Both the position numbers and the translations under genes were made by a program. Shown piece by piece: positions 1 through 16,851 of a stretch of DNA of 64,000 nucleotides. How positions within the stretch are numbered: position 1 is the stretch's first letter; every line of letters starts with the position of its first letter. Source of the stretch: Acidobacteriota bacterium (GTDB lineage Bacteria; Acidobacteriota; Thermoanaerobaculia; Multivoradales; JAGPDF01); assembly GCA_045862895.1 (NCBI GenBank), contig BTUO01000002.1, forward strand, positions 113,141-177,140, given 5' to 3'. The notes below the pieces were generated by a model. The model ran no database searches and had not been told where the DNA came from. It saw only the letters and a program-made list of their open reading frames with translations.

Positions 1-1
1 C

Positions 2-211
2 GACAACGTCCAGATCAAGGCCGTCGAGGAGAACGCGAACACGATCTACGTCATCGTCCCGCACTCGGTCGCCGCCGGCGCCGAGCTGGCCGACGAGGAC
101 CTCGAGAAGGTGGCCGGTGGCGCGACCGTCAAGGGCGACGCCAACTGCAACGACAGCGACGGCGCGATGAACACCGTCGTCGAGATCAACGCCGAGTTCA
201 GCCTGATCTAA
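2..211 (+). CDS. NHLP-leader RiPP precursor peptide, copy 1 (5'-truncated by window edge)
   Basis: Frame from base 2 reads DNVQIKAVEENANTIYVIVPHSVAAGAELADEDLEKVAGG|ATVKGDANCNDSDGAMNTVVEINAEFSLI-TAA(209-211). Near-identical to the 274..612 ORF. Not in the ORF track because the start lies outside the window. Confidence 0.92.
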   Translation, partial: DNVQIKAVEENANTIYVIVPHSVAAGAELADEDLEKVAGGATVKGDANCNDSDGAMNTVVEINAEFSLI

Positions 212-610
212 GCAGCACCGCTCCGTCGACGGAACGCAGCAGCAAACAAACCAGAAACTGAGGAGAGACTCCGATGAAGATGACCCGTGGTGAGATGCAG
301 GACCTGCTCGAGAAGTTCGCTTCGTCCAACCCGCAGTACCGTTCGGCCCTGCTCAAGAACCCCAAGGCCGTGGTCGAGAAGCAGTTCAACATGACGGTTC
401 CGGACAACGTCCAGATCAAGGCCGTCGAAGAGAGCGCGTCGACGATCTACGTGATCGTCCCGCACTCGGTCGCCGCCGGCGCCGAGCTGGCCGACGAGGA
501 CCTCGAGAAGGTGGCCGGTGGCGCGACCGTCAAGGGCGACGCCAACTGCAACGACAGCGACGGCGCGATGAACACCGTCGTCGAGATCAACGCCGAGTTC
601 AGCCTGATCT
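53..610 (+). repeat. Direct repeat: 53-209 identical to 454-610 (157 bp, offset 401)
   Basis: Base-by-base comparison of the two precursor genes. Confidence 0.93.
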
Positions 611-612
611 GA
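274..612 (+). CDS. NHLP (nitrile hydratase-like leader) RiPP precursor peptide, copy 2
   Basis: GAGGAG RBS before ATG274. NHLP leader hallmarks (YRSALLKNPKAVVE, IKAVEE..TIYVIVP) and the double-Gly cleavage motif ELADEDLEKVAGG, followed by a 29-aa core with 1 Cys, 4 Ser/Thr and 1 Lys. Confidence 0.95.
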   Translation: MKMTRGEMQDLLEKFASSNPQYRSALLKNPKAVVEKQFNMTVPDNVQIKAVEESASTIYVIVPHSVAAGAELADEDLEKVAGGATVKGDANCNDSDGAMNTVVEINAEFSLI

Positions 613-627
613 GCCTCACGCTTCGAG

Positions 628-670
628 CCGGCGTCCCTTCCCGCCCGGGAGGGGACGCCGGTGCCTTTTT
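628..670 (+). terminator. Hairpin plus T-tract after the precursor genes (intrinsic terminator/attenuator)
   Basis: CCGGCGTCCCTTCCC-gccc-GGGAGGGGACGCCGG stem (one G-U pair) followed by tgccTTTTT. Confidence 0.75.
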
Positions 671-727: not shown

Positions 728-3700
728 GTGACCCCTCCGACTTCCTCCGCTTCCGCCCCGACCGACGACGTCGCGGCCCGCCTGTCGAGAATCGCGGCGC
801 GTGCCGAGACCCTCGCCGAGCGGCTGGAGCGCGCCCGCGCGACTTCCGGCCCCGCCGATGTGGACGTCACGGAGGCGCTCGCCGGCTGGCAGCGCGCCTT
901 CGCGCCCGGGGACCCGGCCGCGCTCGAGCGCCGACTCGGCTGGGACGGCCTCGACCCGTCCACTGCGGCCCGCGCGCTCGGCCCGCAGGGCGAGCTCGCG
1001 CCGGCCTCGCCGCTGCCGGAGTGGGCCGATCTCGCGCGCCGGATGGGGGTGGGATCCGACTTGCGCCAGGCTCCCGAGCTGCCGCTCGATCTCACCTCGG
1101 TGCCCTTCGTCGAGCTCTGGTCCCCGCTGGTCGGGATGGCCCTGGCGGCCTACGCCCAGGCCCGCGAGACGGCGATCCCGGCCGAATCCATGAAGGTGCT
1201 GGTGCGCGGCCTCGCGGAGGACATGGCGCGCGTCGCGGGCGTCGCCGCCTTCGAGCGGTTCCGGCGCCGGCGCGAGGCCGATCCCGCGCCCGGCGTCTAT
1301 CAGCGGTTCGTCGCCGACGAGCTCGCCTCGGGCCTGCTCGACTTCGCCGAGGAGTTCCCGGTGGCGATGCGGCAGTTGGTCCGACTCGCGTCGACCTGGT
1401 ACGACGCGCTCACCGAGCTGGTCGCCCGCGTCGAGCGCGACCGGCCGGCGCTCGCCGAACGATTCGCGGCCGGCGCCGAGCTCGGGCCGATCGCCGTCGT
1501 CGAGCGCGCCGATTCCGACCGCCACGCCGGCGGCCGCGTCGTCTTCCGCGTCGCTTTCGCCAGCGGGCTCGAGCTGGCCGCCAAGCCGCGCTCGCTGGCG
1601 GTCGAGGCGGCGTTCGCCGGACTCGTCGGCTGGCTCGCCGAAGCCGGGTTCCCCGACCCGCCGCCGGCGCCCGAAGTGCTCGATCGCGGCGACCACGGTT
1701 GGATGCGCTGGGAGCGCGCCGCTCCGCTCGCCGATCGCGGGGCGCTCGAGACCTGGTGGCGCCGGGCCGGGACCCTGATCGCTCTGGCCGAGCTGCTCGG
1801 CGCCGAAGATTTGCATGCCGAGAACATCGTGGCGGTCGCCGACGGCCCGCTGGTGGTCGACGCCGAGATGCTGCTCCAGCCCGACCGTGCCGGCGTCGCC
1901 GGACGCGAGCGCCGCGAGCGGTTCACCGGCGGCCTGCTGCGGCGCGCCGGGGAGGCGGGGCGGGTGGCGGCCTGGGCCGGGCTCCATCCGGTCGAGGAGC
2001 GGGTGGTCTCGGAGCGCGGCCGGGGGTGGAGCGGCCTCGGCACCGACGCGCTCGCGCCGGTCCCGGTGCCGGTCGTCGCGCGGCCGCTTGCCAACGTCCC
2101 GGCGCACGACGGGCGGCCGACCTCGCCGCAGGAGTTCGCCGTCGCCCTGGTCGCCGGCTACCGCTCGACCTGGCGGCGGCTGCTCGACGCACGCGACCGG
2201 CTCGTCGCCGCGGACGGCCCGCTCGACCGGTTCGTCGGCGCGCCGCTGCGCCTGCTGATGCGCGCGAGCCAGGAGTACGCCACCGTCCTCGACCTCGCCG
2301 CGACGCCGCGCCACCAGCGCGACGCGCTCGGCGCCTCCCTGTTGTTCGAGGCGATGGCGCGGCCGTTCGCGTCCGCGACGAAGGCGCCACGCGCCTGGCC
2401 GTTGATCGCCGCCGAGCGCGCGGCGCTCGAGGGGCTCGACGTGCCACGCTTCGAGATCGCCGCCGACGGGCTCGACGCGACCGCGGACGGGGTGCGCGCG
2501 GAGGGGGTCGTCCCCCGCTCGGCGCTCGCCGCGGCCCGCGCCCGCCTGGCGGAGCTGACCGAGGCGCAGATCGAGCGCCGGGTCGAGGCGGTGGTCGAGG
2601 CTCTGGCGCCCGATGCGGGCGTGCGCATCGAGCTCGAGCCGCCGGCCGGCGAGGGCGCCGTCGCGCGGGCGCTGGTGGTCGCCGACCGCATCGTCGCCTT
2701 CGATCTCGATCCGCGGCGCGCGCGCGCTGCCGGCGATCGTCCGCGTCGCCTCGAAGAACGTCTCCTCGATCTGGCGCTCTACGACGGGCGCCTCGGCCGC
2801 GCCTTCGTGCTGGCGAGCGCCGATCGCGTCGACGGCGGCTCGCGGCTGACCGCGGTCCTGCCCGCGCTGATCGAGGATCTCGACCGCTTCGCGACCGATT
2901 CCGAGCAGAGCGATCTGCCCGTCGGCGGTCTCACCGGACTCGGTTCGATCGTCTGGTCGCTGGTGGCGATCGCGCGCGCGAGCGGGCGCGGCGAGCTGCT
3001 CGACATGGCGCGAAGCTACGCCCGGCGCCTGACGGGCGAGCGTCTCGCCGCCGACGAGCGGCTGGACGTCGAAGGAGGCGCCGCCGGCGCCCTGCTCGCC
3101 CTGCTCGCGCTCGCCCAGGCGACCGGCGAAGCGAGCTGGCGCGAAGCGGCGACCTCGGCCGGAGAGCGGCTGCTCGCGACCCGGACGCCGCAGCCCGAAG
3201 GGGGCGCCGCCTGGGTCGGCAGCGGCGGGCGCGCGCTCGCCGGCTACGCCCACGGCGCGGCCGGTATCGCCCGCGCGCTCGCCGCCCTCGGCGCGGCCAC
3301 CGGCGACCCCCGCTTCGCCGCGGCGGTGGCCGACGCCCTCGATTTCGAGCGGGCGCTCTACGACCCGGCCCACGGCAACTGGCCGGTTCGGCGCGCCGGC
3401 GCGGTGAGCGGAGACGAACGGGTGATCTGGATGACTGCTTACTGCCACGGTGCCCCGGGCATCGCGATCGGCCGCACCCTGCTGCCGCCGTCGGCCCGCG
3501 ACGAGCAAGTGGGGGAGGAGCTCGCTTCGGCGGTCGCGGCGACGCTCGCCGCTGGCGAGGGGAGCCACGACCACCTCTGCTGCGGAGCGGCCGGTCGCGC
3601 CCTCGCGCTCGCCCGCGCGGCGCTCGACGCCGGCTCGCCCGAGCTCGGCGCCTTCGCGCGCGGATTCGCCGCGAGCCTGCTCGAGCGGCCGGCGCGGCTG

Positions 3701-4867
3701 CCGCGTTCGCCACGCGATCCGGCGGCGGCCGAAGCCGGCCTGTTCCGCGGCGTCGGCGGCCTCGCCTGGCTGGCGCTGTTCCTCGATCGCGCGAACGAAC
3801 CCGCGCTGCTCGACCCGGCGGCGCTCGAGCTCCCCTCGGAAGCCGAGGATCGAGCGGCGCGGGTCGGCGCGATGCCCGCGGCGACTTCCGGAGCTGTTCG
3901 AATGACCGAGTCCGTCGAGATCACGACGCTCGAGGCGGGGACGTCCGAGCCCCGGCTCACCGCCATGACCTTTCCGATCTATCGGCCGCTGCTCACCCTC
4001 GCACCGGCGAGCCGCCACCCCGAGCAGGGGGACGCGCGCCGCATCCAGCCGGTGGCGGTGGTCGCCCGCGCCGGCGGCGAGCCGCTCGGCCTGGCGCTCG
4101 GCGAGCTGCCGGTCGACCCGGGCCCGGCGCCGGAGCTGCTCTCCCTGTTCGTCGCCGCCGAGGCGCGCGGGATGGGGATCGGCACCGCGCTGGTTGCCGC
4201 CTTCGAGGAGGAGATCGCGCGTCGGGGGCTCGACGAGGTGGCGGCGGTCTACACCGCCGGCAAGCCGGCGATCGCCGCGGTCGAGCGGATCTTCGCCAAG
4301 CGGGCCTGGGAAGCACCCCGGCCGCGCACGCTCTCGGTGCGCTTCCCGCCCGAGGCGGCGCTCGCCTCGGAGCTGTTCTCCGAGCGCCGGATGCGGGCGC
4401 TCGGCGCCGGCCTCGAGCTGGTGCCCTGGGTCGAGCTCGGCGCCGAGGAGCGCTCGGAGATCCGCCGCTCGCACGAGCGCGCGCCCTGGATCACGCCGGC
4501 GCTGGCGCCCTGGCGCTTCGAGGCCGCCGGCTTCGACCCGGTCTCCTCGATCGGCGCCCGCTATCGCGGCGAGGTGGTCGGCTGGGTGATCAACCACGTG
4601 GTCGACCCCCTCACCGTCCGGTTCACCTGCAGTTTCATGCGCAAGGACATCAGCCGGCGCGGGCGGATCATCCCGCTCTACCGGGCGTCGCTCGAGCGGC
4701 TGGCCGCCGCCGGCGTGCCGCGGGCGACCTTCATCACGCCGGTGGTCTACCCGAACATGATTCGTTTCATCCGGCGCTGGATCGAGCCGATCGCCGAGTT
4801 CGTCGGCGAGACGCGCGGGACGCGCAAGCTGCTGGGCGGAGCGGCCGGAGCCGCTTCCCGCCCTTGA
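728..4867 (+). CDS. lanM: Class II lanthipeptide synthetase (LanM) fused to a C-terminal tandem GNAT acyltransferase
   Basis: Dehydratase motifs SDRH, AKPRS, DLHAENI, VDAEML and RLLMRASQEY. LanC cyclase motifs GYAHGAAG, YCHGAPG and LCCG. The last ~320 aa carry GNAT motif A (LFVAAEARGMGIGTAL) and a second GNAT half (GEVVGWVINH..RFTCSFMRKDISRRGR). Confidence 0.9.
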   Translation: MTPPTSSASAPTDDVAARLSRIAARAETLAERLERARATSGPADVDVTEALAGWQRAFAPGDPAALERRLGWDGLDPSTAARALGPQGELAPASPLPEWADLARRMGVGSDLRQAPELPLDLTSVPFVELWSPLVGMALAAYAQARETAIPAESMKVLVRGLAEDMARVAGVAAFERFRRRREADPAPGVYQRFVADELASGLLDFAEEFPVAMRQLVRLASTWYDALTELVARVERDRPALAERFAAGAELGPIAVVERADSDRHAGGRVVFRVAFASGLELAAKPRSLAVEAAFAGLVGWLAEAGFPDPPPAPEVLDRGDHGWMRWERAAPLADRGALETWWRRAGTLIALAELLGAEDLHAENIVAVADGPLVVDAEMLLQPDRAGVAGRERRERFTGGLLRRAGEAGRVAAWAGLHPVEERVVSERGRGWSGLGTDALAPVPVPVVARPLANVPAHDGRPTSPQEFAVALVAGYRSTWRRLLDARDRLVAADGPLDRFVGAPLRLLMRASQEYATVLDLAATPRHQRDALGASLLFEAMARPFASATKAPRAWPLIAAERAALEGLDVPRFEIAADGLDATADGVRAEGVVPRSALAAARARLAELTEAQIERRVEAVVEALAPDAGVRIELEPPAGEGAVARALVVADRIVAFDLDPRRARAAGDRPRRLEERLLDLALYDGRLGRAFVLASADRVDGGSRLTAVLPALIEDLDRFATDSEQSDLPVGGLTGLGSIVWSLVAIARASGRGELLDMARSYARRLTGERLAADERLDVEGGAAGALLALLALAQATGEASWREAATSAGERLLATRTPQPEGGAAWVGSGGRALAGYAHGAAGIARALAALGAATGDPRFAAAVADALDFERALYDPAHGNWPVRRAGAVSGDERVIWMTAYCHGAPGIAIGRTLLPPSARDEQVGEELASAVAATLAAGEGSHDHLCCGAAGRALALARAALDAGSPELGAFARGFAASLLERPARLPRSPRDPAAAEAGLFRGVGGLAWLALFLDRANEPALLDPAALELPSEAEDRAARVGAMPAATSGAVRMTESVEITTLEAGTSEPRLTAMTFPIYRPLLTLAPASRHPEQGDARRIQPVAVVARAGGEPLGLALGELPVDPGPAPELLSLFVAAEARGMGIGTALVAAFEEEIARRGLDEVAAVYTAGKPAIAAVERIFAKRAWEAPRPRTLSVRFPPEAALASELFSERRMRALGAGLELVPWVELGAEERSEIRRSHERAPWITPALAPWRFEAAGFDPVSSIGARYRGEVVGWVINHVVDPLTVRFTCSFMRKDISRRGRIIPLYRASLERLAAAGVPRATFITPVVYPNMIRFIRRWIEPIAEFVGETRGTRKLLGGAAGAASRP

Positions 4868-4948: not shown

Positions 4949-6961
4949 ATGAGGCTTCCGATGAAATCGGTGCGCGGGTTCGGAGCGTTCGCGCTCGCGA
5001 CCCTGCTGGCCACCGCGGCGGGTGCGCAGGACGCGGCCTACGAGCCGCCCACCTTCTCCTACGGCGAGGGGCGGATCGAGCTGATCGAGGCGGTCCGGCT
5101 GACTCTCGCCCACGACCCCAACCTGCTGCTCGACCGCGAGGACGTGGTCTTCCGGCGCGGCGTGCTGCAGGAGATCTCGGGCTCGTTCGACTGGACGCTC
5201 GACCTCGGAGTCTCGTACGACTACCGCGAGCAGCGGCTGCGCGACTCGACCATCGACCGCGAGCGCGAGAAGCGCAACGACCTGACCACCCAGCGCGACT
5301 TCGCCTGCGCCGAGGAGCAGCGCCAGCGCGAGAGCCTGGCCAACCTCCAGCGCTATGCCGGCGGTGACACCAGCGCGCCGATCCCGAACGACGTCCGCCA
5401 GCAGATCGATTTTCTCGACGCGCTGATCGCCGCCGAGGACAACGCCACCCAGCGGGCCCTGCTCCAGCAGGCGCGCGCCAACGTCCTCCAGCGCGCGGTC
5501 ACCCAGGCGACCGAGGCGATCGACGATCTCGCCTCGACCTGCACCGAGCTCGGCGACAGCATCGCGCGCCTCGATGCGCCGCCGGACGAGGAGGAGTTCG
5601 CGACCGGCAAGTTCAATCTCGGCCTGTCGAAGCTCTACCGCAGCGGTCTCTTCCTCGCGCCCTTCTTCACCGCCAGCTACGAGCACAACCAGTTCAAGGG
5701 CAAGAAGAACGGCTTCTTCGAGGATCGTCTCGACGAGAACGGCCAGCCGGTAGTCACCGAGTTCGGCACGCCGCTGCGCCGCTTCGTCGACTTCGGTGGC
5801 AAGAACATCGCCGATCTCTACCGGGCCGAGCTCGGCTTCGACGTCAACGTGCCGCTGCTGCGCGGCCGCGGCGTCGAGTCGACGGGTGCCTCGGAGAAGG
5901 CGGCGGAGATCGACGTCGCCGCCTCGGAGATGGCGCTGCGCCACGGCTCCTCGTTGTCGGTGCTGTCGACCGCGGCGGCCTATTGGCAGCTGCTCGCCGC
6001 CCAGGAACGGGTGGCGGTGCTCGAGCGCTCGGTGGAGTTGCAGAGCCGGCTGGTCGACCTGACCGGACAGCTGATCGAAGGCGGCGTGATTCCGCGGGTC
6101 GAGTCCGCGCGCGCCGCGGCGGGTCAGGCCAACGCCCGAGCCCAGGTCGACGGCGCCCGCCGCGATCTGGTGTCGGCGCGGCTGGCGCTGGCGCGGGCGA
6201 TGGGTGTCGACGTCCAGAGCGAGGCCAACGCGCCGCTGGCGCAGGGACCGTTCCCGGCGGCGCCCTCGCTCGAGGCGATCCGGGCGCTCGACCCGGCGGC
6301 GCTCGCCGCCAGCGCGCTCGACCTGCGCGCCGACCGGCTCGCCTCGCGCGAGCTGGTGCGCTCGGGCCTGGTGCTGGCGGAGGCCGCGCGGCGCAACCTG
6401 GCGTCGCGGCTCGACCTGGCGCTGTCGTTGTCGGCCGGAGCGCTCGGCGAGAACAGCTTCTCGAACGCGGTCGACCGCTGGACCGGCCCGAACGGCTCGT
6501 TCGCGCTGGCCTTCGAAAAGAGCATCGGCAACAACTCGCTCGAGGGGCGCCTCGCCCAGAACCAGTCGCTGGTGCGCCAGCGCGAGATCTCGGCGATCGA
6601 TCTCGAGCGCAACATCCGGATCGGCATCGTGTCCACCCTGCGCTCGCTCGAAGAGGCCGTGGCGCGCCTCGAGGCGGCCGAGACCGCGGCCGGACACTTC
6701 CAGGCCACGATCGACGCCGAGTTCGAGAAGCTCGGGCTGGGCGCGTCGACCCTGATCGACGCCATCGTCACCGAGCAGCAGAAGACCGGCGCCGACCTCA
6801 CCGTGCTCACCGCCCGCCAGCAGGTCGCCAATCTGCTCTCGCAGCTGCGCTTCGAGACCGGCACGCTGGTCGAATGGGGCGACGGCGGCGGCACGCTGCC
6901 GGCCGACGCCCTGATCTCGCTGCCGCCCGGCGCGGCGGGAACCGCCGGAGGGCTGCCGTGA
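4949..6961 (+). CDS. TolC-family outer membrane efflux protein (with large insertion)
   Basis: Signal peptide, TolC helical repeats (VPLLRGRG..AAAYWQLLAAQERV; EFEKLGLGASTLIDAI..LRFETGTL), located in an export operon. Confidence 0.85.
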   Translation: MRLPMKSVRGFGAFALATLLATAAGAQDAAYEPPTFSYGEGRIELIEAVRLTLAHDPNLLLDREDVVFRRGVLQEISGSFDWTLDLGVSYDYREQRLRDSTIDREREKRNDLTTQRDFACAEEQRQRESLANLQRYAGGDTSAPIPNDVRQQIDFLDALIAAEDNATQRALLQQARANVLQRAVTQATEAIDDLASTCTELGDSIARLDAPPDEEEFATGKFNLGLSKLYRSGLFLAPFFTASYEHNQFKGKKNGFFEDRLDENGQPVVTEFGTPLRRFVDFGGKNIADLYRAELGFDVNVPLLRGRGVESTGASEKAAEIDVAASEMALRHGSSLSVLSTAAAYWQLLAAQERVAVLERSVELQSRLVDLTGQLIEGGVIPRVESARAAAGQANARAQVDGARRDLVSARLALARAMGVDVQSEANAPLAQGPFPAAPSLEAIRALDPAALAASALDLRADRLASRELVRSGLVLAEAARRNLASRLDLALSLSAGALGENSFSNAVDRWTGPNGSFALAFEKSIGNNSLEGRLAQNQSLVRQREISAIDLERNIRIGIVSTLRSLEEAVARLEAAETAAGHFQATIDAEFEKLGLGASTLIDAIVTEQQKTGADLTVLTARQQVANLLSQLRFETGTLVEWGDGGGTLPADALISLPPGAAGTAGGLP

Positions 6962-8952
6962 AGCGAGTTCTCCGAACCGCGCGGCCGTTCGCGGCCGCGC
7001 TCCTGGTGGCGGTCGCGTCCGGGTCCGCCCGGCCGGCCGCCGCCGCGGCGCTCTCGGCCGACGACGCGGTGCGCCGCGCGCTCGCCGCGAGCCCGGTGAT
7101 CGCGCGGGCCGAGCAGGAGGTCGCGCTGCGCTCCGGCGCGGTGACCCAGGCGGAAGGCCTGTTCGACAACGCGCTGCTCTCGGATTTCCGGGTCGACTAC
7201 GGCGTCGAGGAGCTGTTCGGCTCCCGGCTCAAGGCCGAGCAGGACCGGCGGCTCCGGCTCGAGATTCCGCCGCCGATCCTCGACGACATCGCCGCCAAGC
7301 TGATCGACCGGCTGCCGACCGATGCCAGCTTCTTCCTGCCCAGCAGCTGTCTCCAGGCGACCAGCTTCATCGTCCTCGGCGACACCTCGACGGTGGTCTG
7401 CGTCAACGACGACGGCAACGTGCTCGGCATCCTCGACCCGTCGATCGCCCTCGACCCGTCGCTGTTCACCACGCTCGAGCTGGGCGAGGCCTTCGCGGGC
7501 CTGTCCGGATTCGACGAGCGCCTGCAGGTCTTCATCGACCTCATCCGCAACTCCGCCGCCGACCAGATGCGCCTGACCGCGCTCATCCTGCGCCGCACCG
7601 CCGACTCGCTGCGCTTCCAGCGCATCCGGATCGGCCAGGTGCCGGAGGACCGCGTCTCGATCCGCATGGACGCCGGCGTCGACTACCGAATCCCGATGCG
7701 CAGCGGCGCGGCCCTGATCTCGTCGCTGTCGCTCGGCAGCTCCGAGGAGAACTTCCGCGGCAAGCGGCTCGATCCGACCTGGGGCGACGCGCTGATCGCC
7801 AACCAGTTCCGAATGACCGCCGGCCTCGCTCTCGACCTGCCGCTCGGTCGCGGCGCCGGCCGCGTCTCCTTCGAAGCGCCGCTGGTGGCGGCGCGGCGCG
7901 GCCAGGTAGCGGCGGAGGCGCTCTACGAGCACACCGCCTCCGAGCGCGCGCTGGCGACGCTCGAGGCCTACTGGGACGTCGCCGCTGCGGCGCGCCGCCT
8001 CGACCTGCTCGAGCAGTCGCTCGTGATCCAGGACCGCCTGCTCGGCGCGAGCGGCGAGCTGGCCGAGGCCGGAGTGATCCCGCGCGTCGACCTCGAGCTC
8101 AACCGCGCGCGCCGGGCGTCGACCGAGTCCTCGGTCGCCGGCGCGCGGCAGGCGCTCACGGTGGCGCGCGCCGAGCTCGCCCGGGTGCTCGGCATCGAGG
8201 CGGCGGAGCTCGAGACGATCGAGACCGACGCCGACCTCGCCGGCTGGATCGGCGCCGATCCGCTCGGGACCGGCGACGTCGAAGCGCTCGTCTCCAGGGC
8301 CGTCGCGGAGCGCGACGATCTGCGCGCGGCCGGCGAGCGGCTCGCGGCGGATCGCGCTCTGGCGGCCGCCGCGGAGCACGACCTCAGGCCCCAGGTCGCG
8401 CTCCAGATCAACGCCTCGTACAACGCATTCCACGAGACCTTCCGCGAGCGCTTCTACGATCCCGAGGGGTTCGAGAAGGCGATGGACGAGCCGTGGTCGG
8501 GTCCGAGCTACGGCGCGGCGCTGCGCATCCGCTTGCCGATCGGCAACAACGCCGCGCGCGGCCGGCTGCTCCAGGCCCGCTCGGCGGCGACCTCGAGCGA
8601 GATCGGATCGATCGACCTCAGGCGTTCGATCCGTCTGTCGGTGATCGAGGCGGCCGAGGCGCTGCGACGCTCGCGCGCCGAGCTCGAGTCGCGGCGCGAG
8701 GCGCTGGCGCGCATCGAGGAGACGGCGGAGGCGACGGTCGAGCGGTTCCGCGCCGGCGACCTCACCGTCCTCGACACCCTGATCACCGAGTCGGACCTGA
8801 CCAACGCCCGGCTCGAGGTGCTCGCGGCCGAGCGTACCTACCTGTCGCTCGCCGCCCGACTTCGCTTCGCCACCGGCACCCTGCTCGATCTGCCGGCGGC
8901 GGGCGACGTCCGGGGCGCGCGACTGGCGCCGTTCGCGCAGCCGATTCTCTGA
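6958..8952 (+). CDS. Second TolC-family outer membrane protein (with large insertion)
   Basis: GTG6958 overlaps the upstream TGA, GGAGG RBS. Signal peptide VKRVLRTARPFAAALLVAVA, then LPLGRG..AYWDV and RFRAGDLTVLDTL..LRFATGTL. Confidence 0.85.
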   Translation: MKRVLRTARPFAAALLVAVASGSARPAAAAALSADDAVRRALAASPVIARAEQEVALRSGAVTQAEGLFDNALLSDFRVDYGVEELFGSRLKAEQDRRLRLEIPPPILDDIAAKLIDRLPTDASFFLPSSCLQATSFIVLGDTSTVVCVNDDGNVLGILDPSIALDPSLFTTLELGEAFAGLSGFDERLQVFIDLIRNSAADQMRLTALILRRTADSLRFQRIRIGQVPEDRVSIRMDAGVDYRIPMRSGAALISSLSLGSSEENFRGKRLDPTWGDALIANQFRMTAGLALDLPLGRGAGRVSFEAPLVAARRGQVAAEALYEHTASERALATLEAYWDVAAAARRLDLLEQSLVIQDRLLGASGELAEAGVIPRVDLELNRARRASTESSVAGARQALTVARAELARVLGIEAAELETIETDADLAGWIGADPLGTGDVEALVSRAVAERDDLRAAGERLAADRALAAAAEHDLRPQVALQINASYNAFHETFRERFYDPEGFEKAMDEPWSGPSYGAALRIRLPIGNNAARGRLLQARSAATSSEIGSIDLRRSIRLSVIEAAEALRRSRAELESRREALARIEETAEATVERFRAGDLTVLDTLITESDLTNARLEVLAAERTYLSLAARLRFATGTLLDLPAAGDVRGARLAPFAQPIL

Positions 8953-8980: not shown

Positions 8981-10126
8981 ATGCAGGGACCGGACAAGCT
9001 GCTGCGCAAGGCCTCGGTCGAGAAGCTCTCCTCGCCCGAGCAGCTCGACATGATGATGAGGGTCACCTCGCCGATGGGATGGGTGGCGGTGGTGGCGATC
9101 GGAGCGATGATCGTGGTGGCGATCGTCTGGAGCGTCACCTTCCCGATGCCGGTCAAGGTCGACGGCCGCGGCTTCATGGTGCGCGGCGAGGCGGTGCGCG
9201 AGGTGCAGATCCTGACCTCGGCGACCATCCAGTCGGTCGAGGTCAAGACCGGGGACGTGATCGAGGCGGGCGCGGTCGTCGCCCGCCTCGCGATGCCCGA
9301 CGTCGAGGCGCGTCTGGCCTCGTCGAAGGCGCTGCTCGCCGAGCTCGAGCAGCAGACCTCGGACTCGGGCTCGCAGACCGCGTCGATCCAGGGCCGCCTG
9401 CGCGCCCAGATCGCGCGGCTCGAGCAGGACCGCCGGCAGAAGCAGCAGCTGGTCGACCGCGGGCTGCTGACCTCGGCGGCGGTGGCGTCGATCGATCAGC
9501 AGATCACCAGCCTGCAGAACTCGATGGCGCAGAGCATGATCGGCACCGGCGACCGCGGGCTCCGGGTCGAGGACAAACGGCTCGAAGTGCGGGAGCTCGA
9601 GGCCAAGCTCGCCAACGAGTCGGTGGTGCGCAGCTCGTTCGGCGGCCGGGTGGTCGCGGTCCGGGCGGGAGTCGGGCAACCGGTACGCCCCGGCGACGCG
9701 CTGCTGTCGCTCGAGTCGATCGGCGATCCGATGCGCGTCATCGGCTTCGTGCCGCTCGCCGCCGGCAAGAAGGTCTCGGCCGGACTCGAAGTCCGCATCG
9801 CGCCTTCGTTCATCCGGGTCGAGGACTACGGCTTCATGATCGGCAAGGTGGTGTCGGTCTCCGCCCTGCCGGCCACGCCTGAGGAGATCCAGCGCATCGT
9901 CGCCAACGACTCGCTGGCCCGGCAGTACATCGATCTCAACCCGTTCCAGGTGGTGATCGAGCCGACCGCGGCGGAGACGCCGTCGGGCTTCAAGTGGACT
10001 TCGTCCTCCGGCCCGCCGGTCGAGGTCGGCAGCGGCACCGACTGCACGGTGCAGGTCGTGGTCGAGACCAGGAAGCCGATCTCGTACGTGATCCCGACCG
10101 TCAAGCAGACGCTGGGCCTGTCCTGA
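8981..10126 (+). CDS. NHLP bacteriocin-system secretion protein (HlyD-type membrane fusion protein)
   Basis: LRKASVEKLSSPEQLD N-terminus, one TM helix, coiled coil, and the FKWTSSSGP C-terminal motif typical of NHLP HlyD proteins. Confidence 0.92.
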   Translation: MQGPDKLLRKASVEKLSSPEQLDMMMRVTSPMGWVAVVAIGAMIVVAIVWSVTFPMPVKVDGRGFMVRGEAVREVQILTSATIQSVEVKTGDVIEAGAVVARLAMPDVEARLASSKALLAELEQQTSDSGSQTASIQGRLRAQIARLEQDRRQKQQLVDRGLLTSAAVASIDQQITSLQNSMAQSMIGTGDRGLRVEDKRLEVRELEAKLANESVVRSSFGGRVVAVRAGVGQPVRPGDALLSLESIGDPMRVIGFVPLAAGKKVSAGLEVRIAPSFIRVEDYGFMIGKVVSVSALPATPEEIQRIVANDSLARQYIDLNPFQVVIEPTAAETPSGFKWTSSSGPPVEVGSGTDCTVQVVVETRKPISYVIPTVKQTLGLS

Positions 10127-10129
10127 CCG

Positions 10130-12346
10130 ATGGCCGAGGCGGAGAAGAAGCCGGCCGCCGCCGGCGCCAAGGCGAAACCCAAGCCGAAAGCGAAGCGGCA
10201 GCGTGTCCCCACCGTCCTCCAGATGGAGGCGGTGGAGTGCGGCGCCGCGTCGCTCTGCATGATCCTCGCCTACCACGGCCGGATCGCCCCGCTCGAGGAG
10301 TGCCGCGCCGAGTGCGGCGTCTCGCGCGACGGCTCCAAGGCCAACAACGTCCTCAAGGCCGCGCGCAAGTACGGGCTCGACGCCAAGGGGTTCAAGTACG
10401 AGCTCGAGGACCTCTACAACCTCGAGTACCCGGCGGTGCTGTTCTGGAACGCCAACCACTTCCTGGTGCTCGAGGGGTTCAAGGGGGACAAGGCCTGCCT
10501 CAACGACCCGGCGCAGGGCCCGCGCCAGGTCACGATCGACGAGCTCGACTCGTCGTTCTCGGGCGTCGTCCTGACCTTCAAGAAGGGGCCCGATTTCAAG
10601 CCGGGTGGCGAGAAGCCGAGCCTGGCCGGCGCGCTGCGCCGCCGGCTGCGCGGCTCCGAGACCGCGCTCGCGTTCGTCCTGCTCTGCGGTCTGTTCCTGG
10701 TCGTCCCCGGGCTGGTGATCCCGACTTTCTCGCGCGTCTTCGTCGACGAGTTCCTGGTCGCCAACCGGGCGTCGATCGTCAAGCCGCTGCTGCTCGGCAT
10801 GGGTCTGACGCTCGGACTCCAGGCGGTTCTGACCTGGCTCCAGCGTTATTACCTCCTGCGTCTCGAGACGAAACTGGCGCTCTCCAACTCCGCGGCCTTC
10901 TTCAATCACATCCTGCGATTGCCGGTCGGCTACTTCGCGCAGCGCTTCGCTGGCGAGATCGGTTCGCGGGTGGCGATCAACGACAAGGTCGCCGGTATCG
11001 TCTCGGGCAAGCTCGCGACCACGGCGATCGACTGCTTCCTGGTCATCTTCTACGCCATCCTGATGTTCCGCTACGACGTCGGCCTGACTCTCACCGTCAT
11101 CGGCGTCGCGCTCGCCAACGTGGTCGCGATCCGGGTGGTCGGCCGGGTGCGCACCGACGCCAGCAGGAAGCTGCTGACCGACAAGGGCAAGCTCGGCGGC
11201 ACCGCGATGGGCGGCTTGCGCATGATGGAGACGCTCAAGGCCACCGGCGGCGAGAACGAGTTCTTCTCGCGCTGGGCGGGCTACCAGGCCAAGGCGCTCC
11301 GGGCCGAGCAGCAGCTGCGCCAGATCAGCGACATGGTCTCGGTGGTGCCGACCGTGGTCAACACGCTGGTGACCGCGTCGGTGCTCTTCTTCGGCGGCCT
11401 GAAGGTCATGGACGGCACGCTCACCGTCGGTCTGCTGGTCGCCTATCAGGCGCTGACCGGCAGCTTCGTCAAGCCGCTCAACTCCTTCGTCACCTTCGGC
11501 TCGACGCTGCAGGAGCTCGAGGCGGACCTCAACCGACTCGACGACGTGCTGCGCTACCCGCAGGATCCGCTCTACAGGAACGAGGCGGCGCAGCGGGCCG
11601 AGAACCCCAACGATCAGCGCTTGAAACTCCAGGGCAAGATCGAGCTGCGCGACGTCACCTTCGGCTACAGCCCGCTCGAGAAACCGCTGATCGAGGATTT
11701 CAACCTCACCATCCAGCCGGGCCAGCGCGTGGCGCTGGTCGGCGGCTCGGGCTCGGGCAAGTCGACCGTCGCCAAGCTGGTCTCGGGTCTCTACCGCCCC
11801 TGGGCGGGCGACGTCCTGTTCGACGACACGCCGCGCGACCGGGTGCCGCGGCGCCTGCTGGCGAACTCGCTCGGCCTGGTCGACCAGGAGATCTTCCTGT
11901 TCGGCGGCACCATCCGCGAGAACGTGACGATGTGGGACGCGACCGTTCCCGCCGGCCGGGTCACCGAGGCCTGCCGCGACGCCGCGATCGCCGAGGTGAT
12001 CGAGACCCGCGACGGCGGCTACGGCGCGATCGTCGACGAGGGCGGCGGTAACTTCTCCGGCGGACAGAAGCAGCGCCTCGAGATCGCCCGCGCCATGGTC
12101 GGCAATCCGACCATCCTGATCCTCGACGAGGCGACGTCGGCGCTCGATCCCTCGACCGAGTCGATCGTCGACGACAGCCTGCGCCGGCGCGGCTGCACCT
12201 GCATCATCATCGCCCACCGGCTGTCGACGATCCGCGACTGCGACGAGATCATCGTCATGCAGCGCGGCAAGATCGTCCAGCGCGGCACCCACGACGAGAT
12301 GAAGGACGCCGAAGGCGCGTATGCAGAGCTCATCAAGACCCACTGA
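10130..12346 (+). CDS. NHLP export ABC transporter, C39 peptidase/permease/ATPase
   Basis: LQMEAVECGAASL (C39 catalytic Cys), NHFLV, TMD, Walker A GGSGSGKS, FSGGQKQR, LDEATSALD. Confidence 0.95.
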   Translation: MAEAEKKPAAAGAKAKPKPKAKRQRVPTVLQMEAVECGAASLCMILAYHGRIAPLEECRAECGVSRDGSKANNVLKAARKYGLDAKGFKYELEDLYNLEYPAVLFWNANHFLVLEGFKGDKACLNDPAQGPRQVTIDELDSSFSGVVLTFKKGPDFKPGGEKPSLAGALRRRLRGSETALAFVLLCGLFLVVPGLVIPTFSRVFVDEFLVANRASIVKPLLLGMGLTLGLQAVLTWLQRYYLLRLETKLALSNSAAFFNHILRLPVGYFAQRFAGEIGSRVAINDKVAGIVSGKLATTAIDCFLVIFYAILMFRYDVGLTLTVIGVALANVVAIRVVGRVRTDASRKLLTDKGKLGGTAMGGLRMMETLKATGGENEFFSRWAGYQAKALRAEQQLRQISDMVSVVPTVVNTLVTASVLFFGGLKVMDGTLTVGLLVAYQALTGSFVKPLNSFVTFGSTLQELEADLNRLDDVLRYPQDPLYRNEAAQRAENPNDQRLKLQGKIELRDVTFGYSPLEKPLIEDFNLTIQPGQRVALVGGSGSGKSTVAKLVSGLYRPWAGDVLFDDTPRDRVPRRLLANSLGLVDQEIFLFGGTIRENVTMWDATVPAGRVTEACRDAAIAEVIETRDGGYGAIVDEGGGNFSGGQKQRLEIARAMVGNPTILILDEATSALDPSTESIVDDSLRRRGCTCIIIAHRLSTIRDCDEIIVMQRGKIVQRGTHDEMKDAEGAYAELIKTH

Positions 12347-12350
12347 CGCC

Positions 12351-15300
12351 GTGGCGACCGTCAAGCTGCGGGTGGTCGAGTCGCCGGTGCCGGGGCTCGC
12401 CGGGCAGGAGCTCACGCTCGACGCCGCCGGCGGCGAGCTCGTCATCGGCCGCGCCGACGACTGCGGCCTGCCGGTCGCCGATCCGTCGATGTCGCGCCGG
12501 CACGCCCGCGTCCTGGTCGTGAACGGGGGCGCCCGCGTGGTCGACAACGGCAGCGCCAACGGCGTCCACGTGGACGGCGCGCGGGTGCCCGAGGCCGAAC
12601 TCGCGGGCGGGCGGCGGTTCACGCTCGGTCAGACCGTGTTCGAGGTCGTCGTCGAGCTGCCGCCGCCTCCGCCCGAGCCGGTCGCGCCGCCGGCGCCGGA
12701 GCCGGATCGGCACGCCCACATCCCGGTCGACCGCACCATCTCGATCTCCGACATCGCCGCGATCGTGCGCGAAATCGAGCGCCCGAAGAGCTTCGAGGAC
12801 GAGGGCGAGGCGGTGGTCACGGCGGCCAACAAGCCGTTCGTGCTCTCCGATCCCGACGCCGTCTACCTGGTCGAGTCGGGCAAGATCGAGATCTTCACGG
12901 TAGCGCTCGAGAACGGCCAGCCGGTCGGCGCGCGCACCCACTTCGTCAGCATCGACCCGGGGCAGCTCTTCTTCGGCATGGATACCGACCGCTACGGCAT
13001 GGGCTCGGGGTTCCTCGCCGTCGGCAAGGCGGGCTCCGAGCTGCGCCGCTATTCGGCCGCGCGGCTGCTGCGCCTGGCCGGCGAGAAGGCCCATCGCGAG
13101 AGGGTCGCCGCGATGGTCGTGCGCTGGGTCGAGGCGCTGTCGCGCCGCCTGGTCTCCGACCTCGAGGTACCGCGGCCCGAGGTCGCGCTCGAAACCGGCA
13201 AGACCTTCGAGGCGGCCGCGGGCAAGCGCGTGGCGAGCGAGCGCGGCGTCGCCTGGGTCGAGATGCCGGCCGCGCAGTTCCTGTTCGACGGCATGTCGAG
13301 CGCGTCGTGGGAGGTCGAGGGCGTTCTGCTGCCGATGGCCCCGGGCAGCTGGATCGAGCTGATCGGTGGCGCCGAGACGTTCACGGGAACGCCGCGCGGC
13401 GCCGCCGAAGTGATCGACGATCCGCGCGCGTGGGCCGGTCTCGAGGTGTTCCACCGCTTGCTGTGCGAGGGCGAGTTCCTCAACAAGCGGCTGTCGACGG
13501 TCGACGAGTACAACCGCCTGCAGAGCAAGGCCGCGCAGACCGAGCAGGCGCGCGAGGCGGCGATGGGCGCCATCGGCTCGGTGCTCGGCGGCACCGGGGT
13601 CTGGGAGCGGCCGTCGTTCGCCGGCGGCGACCTCGGGCCGATCGTCGGCGCGATGCGCCTGATCGGGCAGCGGCTCGGCGTCGAGATCAAGTCGCACCCC
13701 GAGGGCAAGGAAAAGCGCACGTTCGACGAGACGCTGCTCTCGGTCTCTCTGGCGTCCCGACTGCGCTCGCGCCGGGTCGCCCTGGTCGACGACTGGTGGA
13801 ACTACGACCAGGGTCCGATGCTCGGCCAGTACGAGGAGTCCAAGGCGCCGGTGGCGCTGCTGCCGACCGGACCGACCAGCTACGACGCGGTCGACCCGAC
13901 GACCGGCGACCGCCGCAAAGTCGACGAGCAGCTCGGGCGCAGTCTGGTGCCGTTCGCCACCACCTTCTACGTCGGATTCGGCGACGGGCCGGTGACCGCC
14001 AAGCAGTTGATCCGCTTCGCGCTGCGCGGCCTGAAGTCCGACTTCCGCACCGTCGCGCTCATGGGCATCGGGCTCGGCCTGCTCGGGACCGTGCCGCCGA
14101 TGATCACCGGCAAGGTCTTCGATACCGCCATCCCGCAGGCCGAACGGGCGATGCTGATCCAGTTCGCGGGCGGCCTCTTCTTGATGGCGCTGGCCCAGGC
14201 GGCGTTCAAGATCACCCAGGCGATCGCCATGGTCCGCGTCCAGGGGCGGATGGACTACTCGGCGCAGTCGGCGGTCTGGGATCGCCTGCTCGACCTGCCG
14301 ATGACCTTCTTCCGCGGATTCTCGGCCGGCGACCTCGCCGACCGCGCCTCCGGCGTCGACCAGATCCGCCAGATCGTCGCCGGCGCCGGCATCGCCGCGA
14401 TCCTCGGGTCGTTCTCGTCGATCTTCAACGTCTTCCAGATGGTCGGGTACAACATCACCCTGGCGGCGGTGGCGATCGGCCTGACGCTGTTCTACGTCGG
14501 CGTGACCACCTCGGCGAACTACCTGCAGCTGCGCTTCCAGCGCGACGAGCAGAAGCGACGCGGCCGCATCACCGGCCTGGTGCTGCAGTTGATCTCGGGC
14601 GTCGCCAAGCTGCGCGTCAGCGGCGCCGAGAACCACGCCTTCCGGGTCTGGGCGACGGCCTTCTCCGAGCAGCGCAAGGTCAGCTTCAAGGTCGGCCGAG
14701 TGCGCAACGTCATGCAGGTTTTCAACGCCGGCTTCCCGGTCGCCTCCTCGATGGTGATCTTCGCCACGATGGTTTCGCTCAAGTCGTCGTCGGCGGAGAA
14801 GGGGACGCCGTTCGAGATGACGACCGGCGAGTTTCTGGCCTTCTCCGCCGCTTACGGCCTGTTCCTCGCCGCGATGCAGGCGCTGGGCGACGCCTCGCTG
14901 TCGATGCTCAAGATCGTCCCGGTCTGGGAGCGGTTGAAGCCGATCCTCGAGGCCACTCCGGAAGTCGACGCCAGCAAGGTCTACCCGGGCCGCTTGAACG
15001 GCGCGATCGACATTTCGCACCTCTCCTTCCGCTACACCTCCGACGGGCCCTGGATCCTCAAGGACGTCTCGCTCAAGATCCAGCCCGGGGAGTTCGTGGC
15101 GCTGGTCGGCGGATCCGGCTCGGGCAAGTCGACGTTGATGCGACTGATGCTCGGTTTCGAGACGCCGGAGATGGGCTCGATCTACTACGACGGCCAGGAT
15201 CTGGCGACCCTCGACCTGCGCCTGGTCCGCTCCCAGATGGGCGTGGTGCTGCAGGAGAGCCGCCTGCTGCCGGCCGACATCTATCGCAACATCGTCGGTT

Positions 15301-15716
15301 CCTCCTCGCGCACCGTCCAGGAGGCGTGGGAGGCGGCCGAGAAGGCCGGCATCGCCGAGGACGTCCGCGCCATGCCGATGCAGATGCACACCGTGGTCGC
15401 CGAGGGCGGCGGCAGCTTCTCGGGTGGGCAGAAGCAGCGCCTGATGATCGCCCGCGCCATCGTCCACAAGCCGAAGATCCTCTTCCTCGACGAGGCGACC
15501 TCCGCGCTCGACAACAAGACCCAGGCGATCGTCACCGAGAGCATGAACAAGCTCTCGGCGACGCGCATCGTGATCGCCCACCGGCTGTCGACCATCGTCA
15601 ACGCCGACCGCATCTGCTACCTCGAGAAGGGCGAGCTCAAGGAGCAGGGGACGTTCAAGGAGCTGATGGAGCTCGACGGCCTGTTCGCGGCGCTCGCCAA
15701 GCGCCAGCTCGCCTGA
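12351..15716 (+). CDS. NHLP export ABC transporter permease/ATPase with N-terminal FHA and cNMP-binding-like domains
   Basis: FHA motifs IGR..SRRHA..SANG, Pro-rich linker, VYLVESGKIEIF cNMP-like segment, TMD, GGSGSGKS, FSGGQKQR, LDEATS. Start is GTG12351 or ATG12321. Confidence 0.9.
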   Translation: MATVKLRVVESPVPGLAGQELTLDAAGGELVIGRADDCGLPVADPSMSRRHARVLVVNGGARVVDNGSANGVHVDGARVPEAELAGGRRFTLGQTVFEVVVELPPPPPEPVAPPAPEPDRHAHIPVDRTISISDIAAIVREIERPKSFEDEGEAVVTAANKPFVLSDPDAVYLVESGKIEIFTVALENGQPVGARTHFVSIDPGQLFFGMDTDRYGMGSGFLAVGKAGSELRRYSAARLLRLAGEKAHRERVAAMVVRWVEALSRRLVSDLEVPRPEVALETGKTFEAAAGKRVASERGVAWVEMPAAQFLFDGMSSASWEVEGVLLPMAPGSWIELIGGAETFTGTPRGAAEVIDDPRAWAGLEVFHRLLCEGEFLNKRLSTVDEYNRLQSKAAQTEQAREAAMGAIGSVLGGTGVWERPSFAGGDLGPIVGAMRLIGQRLGVEIKSHPEGKEKRTFDETLLSVSLASRLRSRRVALVDDWWNYDQGPMLGQYEESKAPVALLPTGPTSYDAVDPTTGDRRKVDEQLGRSLVPFATTFYVGFGDGPVTAKQLIRFALRGLKSDFRTVALMGIGLGLLGTVPPMITGKVFDTAIPQAERAMLIQFAGGLFLMALAQAAFKITQAIAMVRVQGRMDYSAQSAVWDRLLDLPMTFFRGFSAGDLADRASGVDQIRQIVAGAGIAAILGSFSSIFNVFQMVGYNITLAAVAIGLTLFYVGVTTSANYLQLRFQRDEQKRRGRITGLVLQLISGVAKLRVSGAENHAFRVWATAFSEQRKVSFKVGRVRNVMQVFNAGFPVASSMVIFATMVSLKSSSAEKGTPFEMTTGEFLAFSAAYGLFLAAMQALGDASLSMLKIVPVWERLKPILEATPEVDASKVYPGRLNGAIDISHLSFRYTSDGPWILKDVSLKIQPGEFVALVGGSGSGKSTLMRLMLGFETPEMGSIYYDGQDLATLDLRLVRSQMGVVLQESRLLPADIYRNIVGSSSRTVQEAWEAAEKAGIAEDVRAMPMQMHTVVAEGGGSFSGGQKQRLMIARAIVHKPKILFLDEATSALDNKTQAIVTESMNKLSATRIVIAHRLSTIVNADRICYLEKGELKEQGTFKELMELDGLFAALAKRQLA

Positions 15717-15741: not shown

Positions 15742-16851
15742 GTGACAGCGACCCTGCCCGTCGAACGCCGTCACGCGCTGCTCACCGAGCTCGGTGCGCC
15801 GGCCGCCGCCCGCGACGAGCTGCTCGACTACCTGGACGATCACTACCAGGGACTCGCCGGCGATGCTCCGGACGCCGCGGCGGAGGAGCCGCAGGTGCGT
15901 TTCTGGCGCACCTACGTCGAGGAGGCGGGGCGCGACGGGGTCGCGCGGGCGCTGCGTCGCCGCTTTCCGCAGCTCGGCTTTCCGGTCGCCTCCGGAGTCT
16001 CGCAGTCTCCGGAGTACCGTGCCGCGACCCGTCGCGGCGAGTTCGATCGCGAGGGGCCGGTGGCGCTCGGGTTCGAGCGGCCCGACCGGCTCGAGCTCGT
16101 GCTCGATACCGGCATCGCGGGGCCGGTCCCGGTGCTGACCGCGCGCCACCGCCCGGACTTCGTCGCGCTGGTGCGCGCTCTCTCCGCCCGCAACGAGCCC
16201 GAAGTCGTACCGGACGCGATGGGCGCCTGCCTGGTCAAGGGGCTCGCCGACTGGGAGCGGGTCGATGACTACCGCCGCGCCTGGGAGCGCCGCCTCGGCC
16301 GCACCCCGGGCGACGAGGAATGGTCGGCCGAGATGGCCGCCGGCCTCGCGCCGAACAAGGAGCTCTGGCAGGACCGGCTCATCCTGCTCTCCGACGGGCC
16401 CTACTCGGCCGTGCCGGCGGCGGAGATCGGGCTCGCGGAAGAGGAGTGGCGCGAACGCTCGCTGGCGATCCGCCTCGCGCACGAGAGCTTTCACTACCTG
16501 ACCCTGCGCCGGGCCGGCGCGATCCGCAGCCACCTGCTCGACGAGCTGGTCGCCGACTACGCCGGGCTGACCTTCGCGTTCGGGCGCTACGAGCCCCGGC
16601 TCGCGCTGCGCTTCCTCGGCCTCGATCGCCTCCCCGAGATCCGTCCGGACGGGCGGCTCGCGGTCTATCGTGGCGCCCTCTCGGACGACTCGGTGGCGGT
16701 GCTCGCCCGGTTGCTCGCGCGGGCGGCGGCCGCGCTCGCCGCTCTGCCGCCGGTGGACTCCGCTCCGCAGCGGCGGGCGACGCGCCTGCTCCGGCTGGCC
16801 GCCGCCGGGCTCGACGGCATCGCGGACGGGGCGGTCGGGGTCGCGGAGTGA
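15742..16851 (+). CDS. HExxH-motif protein of unknown function (DUF7005-like)
   Basis: LILLSDGPYS and IRLAHESFHYLTLR..LLDELVADYAG motifs. Co-oriented with the export operon. Confidence 0.7.
   Translation: MTATLPVERRHALLTELGAPAAARDELLDYLDDHYQGLAGDAPDAAAEEPQVRFWRTYVEEAGRDGVARALRRRFPQLGFPVASGVSQSPEYRAATRRGEFDREGPVALGFERPDRLELVLDTGIAGPVPVLTARHRPDFVALVRALSARNEPEVVPDAMGACLVKGLADWERVDDYRRAWERRLGRTPGDEEWSAEMAAGLAPNKELWQDRLILLSDGPYSAVPAAEIGLAEEEWRERSLAIRLAHESFHYLTLRRAGAIRSHLLDELVADYAGLTFAFGRYEPRLALRFLGLDRLPEIRPDGRLAVYRGALSDDSVAVLARLLARAAAALAALPPVDSAPQRRATRLLRLAAAGLDGIADGAVGVAE

Follow-up and report, generated by a model that had tools for sequence, protein, structure and literature searches.

Side-chain-lipidated lanthipeptides, the selidamides and nostolysamides, are a recent class of peptides made by the ribosome and modified after translation (RiPPs) that is studied for the genetic encoding of lipopeptides. 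To our knowledge, the synthetase LanM and the acyltransferase GNAT are separate proteins in all characterised selidamide systems. In the npu system of Nostoc punctiforme PCC 73102, NpuN transfers C16 acyl groups to the Lys1 side chain in its own core independently of NpuM (PMC8784127); in vitro it takes donors from C2 to C16 (PMC13060382; PMC13647313) and prefers palmitoyl-CoA (PMC13060382). In the kamptornamide (ksp) and phaeornamide (pha) systems, KspN and PhaN acylate an ornithine side chain with a defined fatty acid, accept lysine as well and prefer the most N-terminal acceptor, which for KspN may be lysine or ornithine (PMC13647313). The window analysed here, 64,000 nucleotides of contig BTUO01000002.1 from an Acidobacteriota bacterium, carries on its plus strand a compact RiPP cluster in which one open reading frame (ORF) at 728-4867 encodes both LanM and GNAT. 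The cluster is read as that of a selidamide-type (nostolysamide-like) class II lanthipeptide whose LanM and lipidating GNAT were fused into one polypeptide by insertion of a base, a reading to which a probability of about 0.7 is assigned.

The window has a G+C content of about 75% and belongs to a genome of 4.56 Mb that is 98% complete; the host is probably a high-GC acidobacterium of the Thermoanaerobaculia living in sludge and bioreactor communities. Of 24 listed sequencing runs, 20 contain the stretch from 3400 to 4400; they belong to 11 metagenomic studies of sludge and bioreactors.

Domains and homology of the LanM-GNAT gene

The fusion gene (728-4867, plus strand) starts with GTG and encodes 1379 residues in one open frame that contains no stop between the domains. 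Its product has a LanM dehydratase domain, DUF4135 (PF13575; residues 210-577, encoded on the plus strand at 1355-2458; 264 bits, cut-off 29), a LanC-like cyclase domain, LANC_like (PF05147; residues 680-1017, plus strand, 2765-3778; 127 bits, cut-off 23.2), and in the same polypeptide a match to the Pfam family Acetyltransf_1 at residues 1105-1187 (47 bits). The 1379-residue protein also passes the class II LanM model TIGR03897 (480.9 bits, cut-off 304). Within the cyclase domain, Cys906 (in CHG) and Cys951-Cys952 (in CCG) are invariant among 14 fused homologues; we take these three residues to be the zinc ligands, a Cys-Cys-Cys set like that of ProcM. The cyclase is followed by a linker of about 40 residues rich in Ala, Gly and Pro (3779-3901, plus strand; ..LELPSEAEDRAARV..SGAVR), which is the former C-terminal tail of LanM and ends in the Arg codon CGA at 3899-3901, and then by the tandem GNAT (3902-4864, plus strand; residues 1059-1379, 321 residues), a homologue of NpuN. 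The genome has a single LanM and a single GNAT of the selidamide-type family, and both are this ORF. The in-frame fusion of LanM to GNAT that the initial annotation of the window had claimed is borne out by the open frame, the Pfam domains and TIGR03897, and its reading of the product as trifunctional is supported by homology (the same domains and model, with the alignment to NpuN), which points to a three-domain dehydratase-cyclase-acyltransferase polypeptide.

The same annotation had described a GNAT of about 321 residues in two lobes that resembles GNATs of cyanobacterial Nif11/NHLP clusters, and both parts of this description hold. In an AlphaFold2 model computed from a 41-sequence alignment, the last 321 residues form two GNAT lobes with a predicted local distance difference test score (pLDDT) of 95, and the best Foldseek matches in the PDB are tandem-GNAT proteins (2wpw, 7q3a, VipF and MshD). 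The N lobe contains the P-loop RGMGIG (residues 1147-1152, 4166-4183), the P-loop of tandem GNATs being defined as Q/R-x-x-G-x-G/A (PMC13060382), and the C lobe contains the family signature G-x-VVGWVINH. A tblastn search of a plasmid collection (7.3 Gb) recovered the npu locus on pNPUN01 of N. punctiforme PCC 73102, where the matching gene encodes WP_012412981.1 (E 3e-37) and the neighbouring genes encode WP_012412979.1 (a LanM) and WP_012412980.1 (a Nif11 precursor), followed by exporter genes of TIGR03794, TIGR03796 and TIGR03797; the three accessions are those of NpuN, NpuM and NpuA, respectively, in the nostolysamide preprint (PMC13060382). In what follows, L-numbers denote related genome loci (L087 being the genome of the window, reaching upstream of it) and P-numbers denote related proteins. 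Aligned pairwise with NpuN (L081:5815-6702), the GNAT part is 33% identical over 292 residues from end to end (E 1e-55), with both lobes covered.

The npu cluster thus shares with the window a class II LanM, a homologous tandem GNAT, a Gly-Gly leader of the NHLP/Nif11 kind, a Lys near the start of the core and the TIGR03794/03796/03797 exporter; NpuN is known to acylate a Lys side chain. The two clusters differ in that npu has separate LanM and GNAT genes with the precursor gene between them, whereas the window has one polypeptide; in that the leader is of the Nif11 kind in npu and of the NHLP kind in the window; in their cores, which are unrelated (four Cys and Lys1 in npu, one Cys and Lys4 in the window); and in the host of the window, an acidobacterium, with two TolC-like genes added. 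The ksp and pha systems, compared with the window by their descriptions and not by their sequences, are similar in having NHLP precursors, a single-ring LanM and a GNAT, and published trees place acidobacterial homologues in the KspN subclade (Hubrich et al., PMC8784127). Unlike the window, the ksp and pha systems have LanM and GNAT as separate proteins and need a peptide arginase to form ornithine; the core in the window has no Arg, and no peptide arginase was seen among the cluster genes examined.

Junction anatomy and recurrence of the fusion

The origin of the fusion can be read from 11 close relatives that are unfused at this junction (L003-L012 and L072). Ten of the 11 have an ATGA in which the stop of LanM and the start of the GNAT overlap, and L003 has TGATGA; the usual unfused junction ends ...GGA GCx Gxx CGA TGA and is overlapped by ATG AGC. 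The window reads GGA GCT GTT CGA ATG ACC, that is, CGA-ATG-A: the codons of the LanM tail are those of the unfused relatives in the same frame, one base (3901) has been added between CG and ATGA, and the old TGA persists in the +1 frame, where it still overlaps the ATG. As the initial annotation had stated, a GGAG (3890-3893) stands 8 nt upstream of ATG 3902-3904 on the plus strand, past a low-complexity linker. ATG3902 aligns with the start of stand-alone homologues, and their Shine-Dalgarno (SD) sequence sits at the place of this GGAG. Judged from these alignments, the fusion in the window is a one-base insertion directly 5' of the ATG at the overlapping stop and start, and the GGAG and ATG (3890-3904) are what is left of the SD and start codon that a once separate GNAT gene had. 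In the proposed course of events, lanM would have stood directly before the GNAT gene, its stop overlapping the start of the latter, a state that persists in close relatives, and insertion of a single base before the ATG would have joined the two genes. Point mutation of a stop codon was considered as the origin and rejected, because the TGA survives in the +1 frame and one base is added.

Among fused proteins, the junction Met is retained solely in P0003-P0005, which are 87-94% identical overall, and is absent from the other fused lineages; this supports a recent fusion in the lineage of the window. Of the earlier suggestion of a recent fusion by stop-codon loss, the recency therefore stands and the mechanism does not, a base insertion taking its place; comparison of homologous loci did locate the stop, a TGA that overlaps the GNAT ATG in close unfused relatives and is absent from the frame of the window. 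The unfused acidobacterial lanM-GNAT operons (e.g. L003-L012 and L031) are otherwise similar to the window in their xTVKGDAxC... cores, in gene order, in GNATs that are 64-69% identical and in an SD and start codon homologous to 3890-3904; they differ in having two genes, the LanM TGA overlapping the GNAT ATG, whereas the window is one base longer and has one ORF. At another locus, in a member of the Vicinamibacterales (L060:7851-8060), LanM and GNAT lie in the same frame and are set apart by a TAA stop and three codons, and there a plain stop-codon change would suffice to fuse them.

The architecture is not unique to the window, and a search for it returned at least ten other full-length proteins and seven other fused loci. 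HMMER with the 321-residue part against 1.84 billion representatives found 1318 relatives (at the 50%-cluster level), most of them stand-alone proteins of about 300 residues; seven of the best 150 of the 1318 matches have 1374-1445 residues with the GNAT at the C terminus. Eleven long proteins (785-1445 residues) match the GNAT part with 43-91% identity there, and ten of the 11 combine DUF4135, LANC_like and GNAT. At the level of loci, 80 were gathered by one pattern, Gx[VI]VGWV[IL][NT]H, taken from a 13-row alignment; the set is therefore biased toward members that keep this pattern, and N. punctiforme was missed by it. Fusion states were counted, and a GNAT tree was built, over 82 rows (the 80 loci, the window and NpuN). 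LanM and GNAT are fused in eight of these (the window, L001, L002, L028, L032, L039, L040 and L044); lanM is separate and directly upstream of the GNAT gene in 28, elsewhere in the locus in 18, and not seen in the locus in another 28, several of which are cut by a contig end.

The fused rows have four distinct junctions. Besides that of the window, L001 and L002 read ...EEVV-VSEAG, with TGG TGA in the +1 frame; L040 and L044 are joined by a frame change right after ...LAFEA, where their sister L031 keeps the ATGA overlap; and L028, L032 and L039 have a separate, different linker. A quick maximum-likelihood search over the GNAT parts of the 82 rows gave a tree that implies at least four changes of fusion state; its starred branches alone also force at least four, and a single clade of all eight fused rows costs 344 log-likelihood units and is rejected (p-AU 7.1e-5). 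By the junctions and the tree, fusion of LanM to GNAT arose independently several times. The several independent junctions imply that fusion and separation interconvert easily, which fits two enzymes that are made in equal amounts and act on one leader-bound substrate.

Other members of the family were encountered in the same searches. Protein P0007 (785 residues, on an 820-kb contig) joins a LanC-like domain to the GNAT without a dehydratase domain and represents a gene call cut short or else a split LanM. Selidamide-type GNATs are also fused to cytochrome P450 (in both orders), to DUF4915/TIGR03032, to a methyltransferase and to a FemAB-like domain, in proteins P0105, P0132, P0040, P0070 and P0041 from the HMMER matches; the tblastn matches in two plasmids of Nostoc sp. 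ATCC 53789 and one Gloeothece plasmid are genes annotated as TIGR03032 family. The GNAT of L058, a metagenome-assembled genome (MAG) labelled Tatlockia (Legionellaceae), branches within the cyanobacterial clade beside a Nostoc sequence, a placement that points to transfer or a binning error.

Predicted pathway and alternative readings

Three precursor genes encode NHLP leaders and one common core. Copy 1 is at L087:11467-11802, upstream of the window on the same contig; copy 2 starts 128 nt before the window, and its 3' part occupies 1-211 (plus strand); copy 3, which is complete at 112 residues, occupies 274-612 (plus strand) and matches TIGR03793 (63.1 bits, cut-off 50.9). The leader ends ...EKVAGG and is followed by the 29-residue core ATVKGDANCNDSDGAMNTVVEINAEFSLI, which has one Lys (K4), one Cys (Cys9) and no Arg; its other residues include Thr2, Ser12, Thr18 and Ser27. 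Translation thus agrees with the earlier observation that K4 is the only Lys of the core. Precursor-like ORFs were surveyed in the window, the npu locus and the 80 loci, and five more ORFs without a recognisable leader end were excluded; of the 86 related ones, 82 have a Lys within the first four core positions (50 of them at position 1), as is the case in every one of the 53 loci with a precursor found. Because Lys at positions 1-4 accompanies the family and the motif x-T-V-K-G-D-A-x-C is conserved in the clade of the window, Lys4, which the initial annotation had called the obvious acceptor, is likely to be the acylated residue, as the published data on NpuN and KspN also indicate.

The chemistry of the pathway is predicted from the observed gene structure, homologies, junction anatomy and recurrence of the fusion. 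The three precursor genes would supply the leader-core substrate and the single synthetase gene the one 1379-residue protein, of which the LanM part would dehydrate Ser and Thr and form one (methyl)lanthionine to the sole Cys, most likely between Thr2 and Cys9, so that the single ring would probably enclose the acylated Lys. The C-terminal tandem GNAT would transfer an acyl group from acyl-CoA to the epsilon-amino group of Lys4; by analogy with NpuN, KspN and PhaN, the group is probably a fatty acyl chain, medium or long, whose length cannot be read from sequence. The C39-ABC, HlyD and TolC proteins would then remove the leader after GG and export the lipopeptide. A wider set of proposals is doubtful when all of its parts are taken together: that repeated fusion means LanM and GNAT act as a single physical unit in every pathway of this type, with one leader-binding event serving dehydration, cyclisation and lipidation; that the enzyme of the window is a natural catalyst with three activities, which places the fatty acyl-Lys within a methyllanthionine ring (Thr2-Cys9 enclosing Lys4), a lipopeptide topology not yet described; and that ATG3902 might set the ratio of fused to free GNAT.

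An assembly or sequencing artefact, in which a spurious extra base at the stop/start overlap conceals a two-gene organism, has in its favour that one base makes the whole difference and that close relatives are unfused, but it is hardly credible. The junction was checked in four runs, each from a different study and none of them marked as a possible source of the window, with assembled contigs rather than raw reads; contigs from all four runs span 3811-4036 or more with no gap and no indel listed. Two single-nucleotide polymorphisms, 3895 T>C and 3901 A>G, fall within the final codons ahead of the ATG, and both are silent in the fused frame; two of the four runs have G in place of A at 3901, yet the base is always there, and the codon specifies Arg either way. 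P0003-P0005, from other assemblies, also have 1376-1379 residues. Since independent contigs bridge the junction and other full-length LanM-GNAT proteins exist, the fusion is not an assembly artefact, and sequence support across 3840-3905 upholds it; the contigs being assembled sequence, minor unfused variants may occur in the population. A more serious alternative is that one gene yields two products, the relic SD and ATG3902 driving an internal start so that the 1379-residue fusion is made together with a free GNAT of 321 residues; the fusion would then be recent and nearly neutral, and the free GNAT might do most of the acylation. The GGAG, 8-nt spacer and ATG lie exactly at the SD and start of unfused relatives, the Met is retained in P0003-P0005, the junction of L001 and L002 retains GGAGGAGG followed by GTG, and the activity of NpuN without NpuM implies that a free GNAT would be competent. 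The junction Met, however, is absent from the older fused proteins P0006, P0008-P0013, P0017, P0019 and P0025 and from L040, L028, L032 and L039, so an internal start is dispensable in the family, and the fusion in the window is so young that retention of the SD and ATG says nothing about selection. An internal start is on balance unlikely, though far better founded than an artefact.

A different function of the GNAT would alter the product rather than the gene: short-chain acetylation, acylation of the N terminus after leader removal, or self-protection in place of fatty acylation of Lys4. NpuN accepts C2 to C16 donors in vitro, a range that suits the first of these, sequence giving no chain length, and class III lipolanthipeptides (microvionin, goadvionins and lipoavitides) are likewise lipidated by GNAT-superfamily enzymes, which act on the N terminus (PMC13060382). 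Those N-terminal acyltransferases, however, belong to class III systems, with class III synthetases and polyketide or dedicated fatty-acid-synthase donors, and form a different clade from selidamide GNATs (Hubrich et al., PMC8784127). The GNAT of the window is homologous from end to end to NpuN, a side-chain acyltransferase, a Lys at core positions 1-4 goes with the family in nearly every case, and self-resistance was deemed unlikely for NpuN by its authors (PMC13060382). Such other functions are accordingly considered improbable, less likely than an internal start, and fatty acylation of Lys4 by a fused LanM-GNAT remains the preferred reading.

Several points weigh against this reading. The GNAT shares only 33% of its residues with NpuN, and in the GNAT tree the window lies in the acidobacterial half and NpuN in the cyanobacterial half; that tree, a quick search, took in family members, KspN, PhaN and outgroup GNATs being absent from it. 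An AlphaFold3 model of NpuN suggested Asp182 and His265 as catalytic (PMC13060382), and neither is conserved in the GNAT of the window, where His265 corresponds to Tyr283 and the Asp region to Pro199-Ala200; the same preprint leaves the catalytic lobe unsettled even for NpuN, and the bioactivity measured in it was unchanged by NpuN acylation (PMC13060382). No RNA run is recorded among the 24 that are listed, and assembly indels could, in principle, lie behind some of the unfused states seen in MAGs. As to novelty, the main texts searched, PMC8784127, PMC13647313, PMC13060382 and PMC7268733 among them, describe no natural LanM-GNAT fusion, every mention of "fusion" or "fused" referring to tags or leader-core hybrids, but supplements with drawings of gene clusters may already show some.

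The kind of pathway, a lipidated class II lanthipeptide, is already known, and so is the kind of chemistry expected from it; the recurrent domain architecture, with its repeated one-indel origin, is apparently undescribed. A single-chain LanM-GNAT that has arisen several times is Rosetta-stone evidence for cooperation of the two enzymes on one leader-bound substrate, and offers a compact one-gene catalyst for engineering. For gene evolution, the locus is a base-by-base case in which genes with overlapping stop and start fuse through one inserted base, and in which the state flips readily.

Export, regulation and neighbouring genes

Downstream of the fusion gene, the plus strand encodes a TolC-like outer-membrane efflux protein (4949-6961) and a second TolC-like outer-membrane protein (6958-8952) with a signal-peptide-like N terminus, whose GTG start overlaps the preceding stop. 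These are followed on the same strand by an NHLP bacteriocin system secretion protein of the HlyD type (8981-10126; TIGR03794, 263 bits, cut-off 156), an NHLP export ABC transporter with an N-terminal Peptidase_C39 domain (10130-12346; TIGR03796, 1085 bits, cut-off 853), which presumably cleaves the leader after GG, and subunit 2 of the NHLP export ABC transporter (12321-15716; TIGR03797, 893 bits, cut-off 709), to which an FHA domain is added at the N terminus. A DUF7005 protein (15742-16851; 345 bits), which has no NCBIfam model match, is encoded directly past the export genes. Further FHA-domain genes are located at 17281-18474 of the window (minus strand), L087:3235-5136 and L087:7583-8581, and a gene for a HAD-domain protein also lies upstream of the cluster. 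Among the cluster and neighbour genes examined, none for an acyl-CoA ligase or a carrier protein was seen, and the neighbours (a sigma-54 activator, the HAD protein and the DUF7005 protein) do not hint at the acyl donor.

A terminator-like hairpin of 16 pairs (12 of them G-C) followed by a T-run occupies 627-662 (plus strand), past the last precursor gene and ahead of the synthetase gene; the scan gave this one match against a mean of 1.5 in shuffles, so that the count carries no above-chance signal and only the position is suggestive. The hairpin may be an attenuator that gives an excess of precursor transcript. A sigma-54-type -24/-12 motif (TGGCAC-N5-YTGC) is present at L087:11335-11349 on the plus strand, 652-666 nt before position 1 of the window. 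Of 87 loci, 15 have a match to this motif; the genome of the window and 11 related loci (L002, L003, L005, L006, L008, L009, L020, L025, L032, L033 and L065) each have it once on the plus strand, some 110-130 nt upstream of their first precursor gene. Just upstream is a gene for a sigma-54 activator (L087:8403-9677), and the arrangement suggests sigma-54-dependent expression of the precursors.

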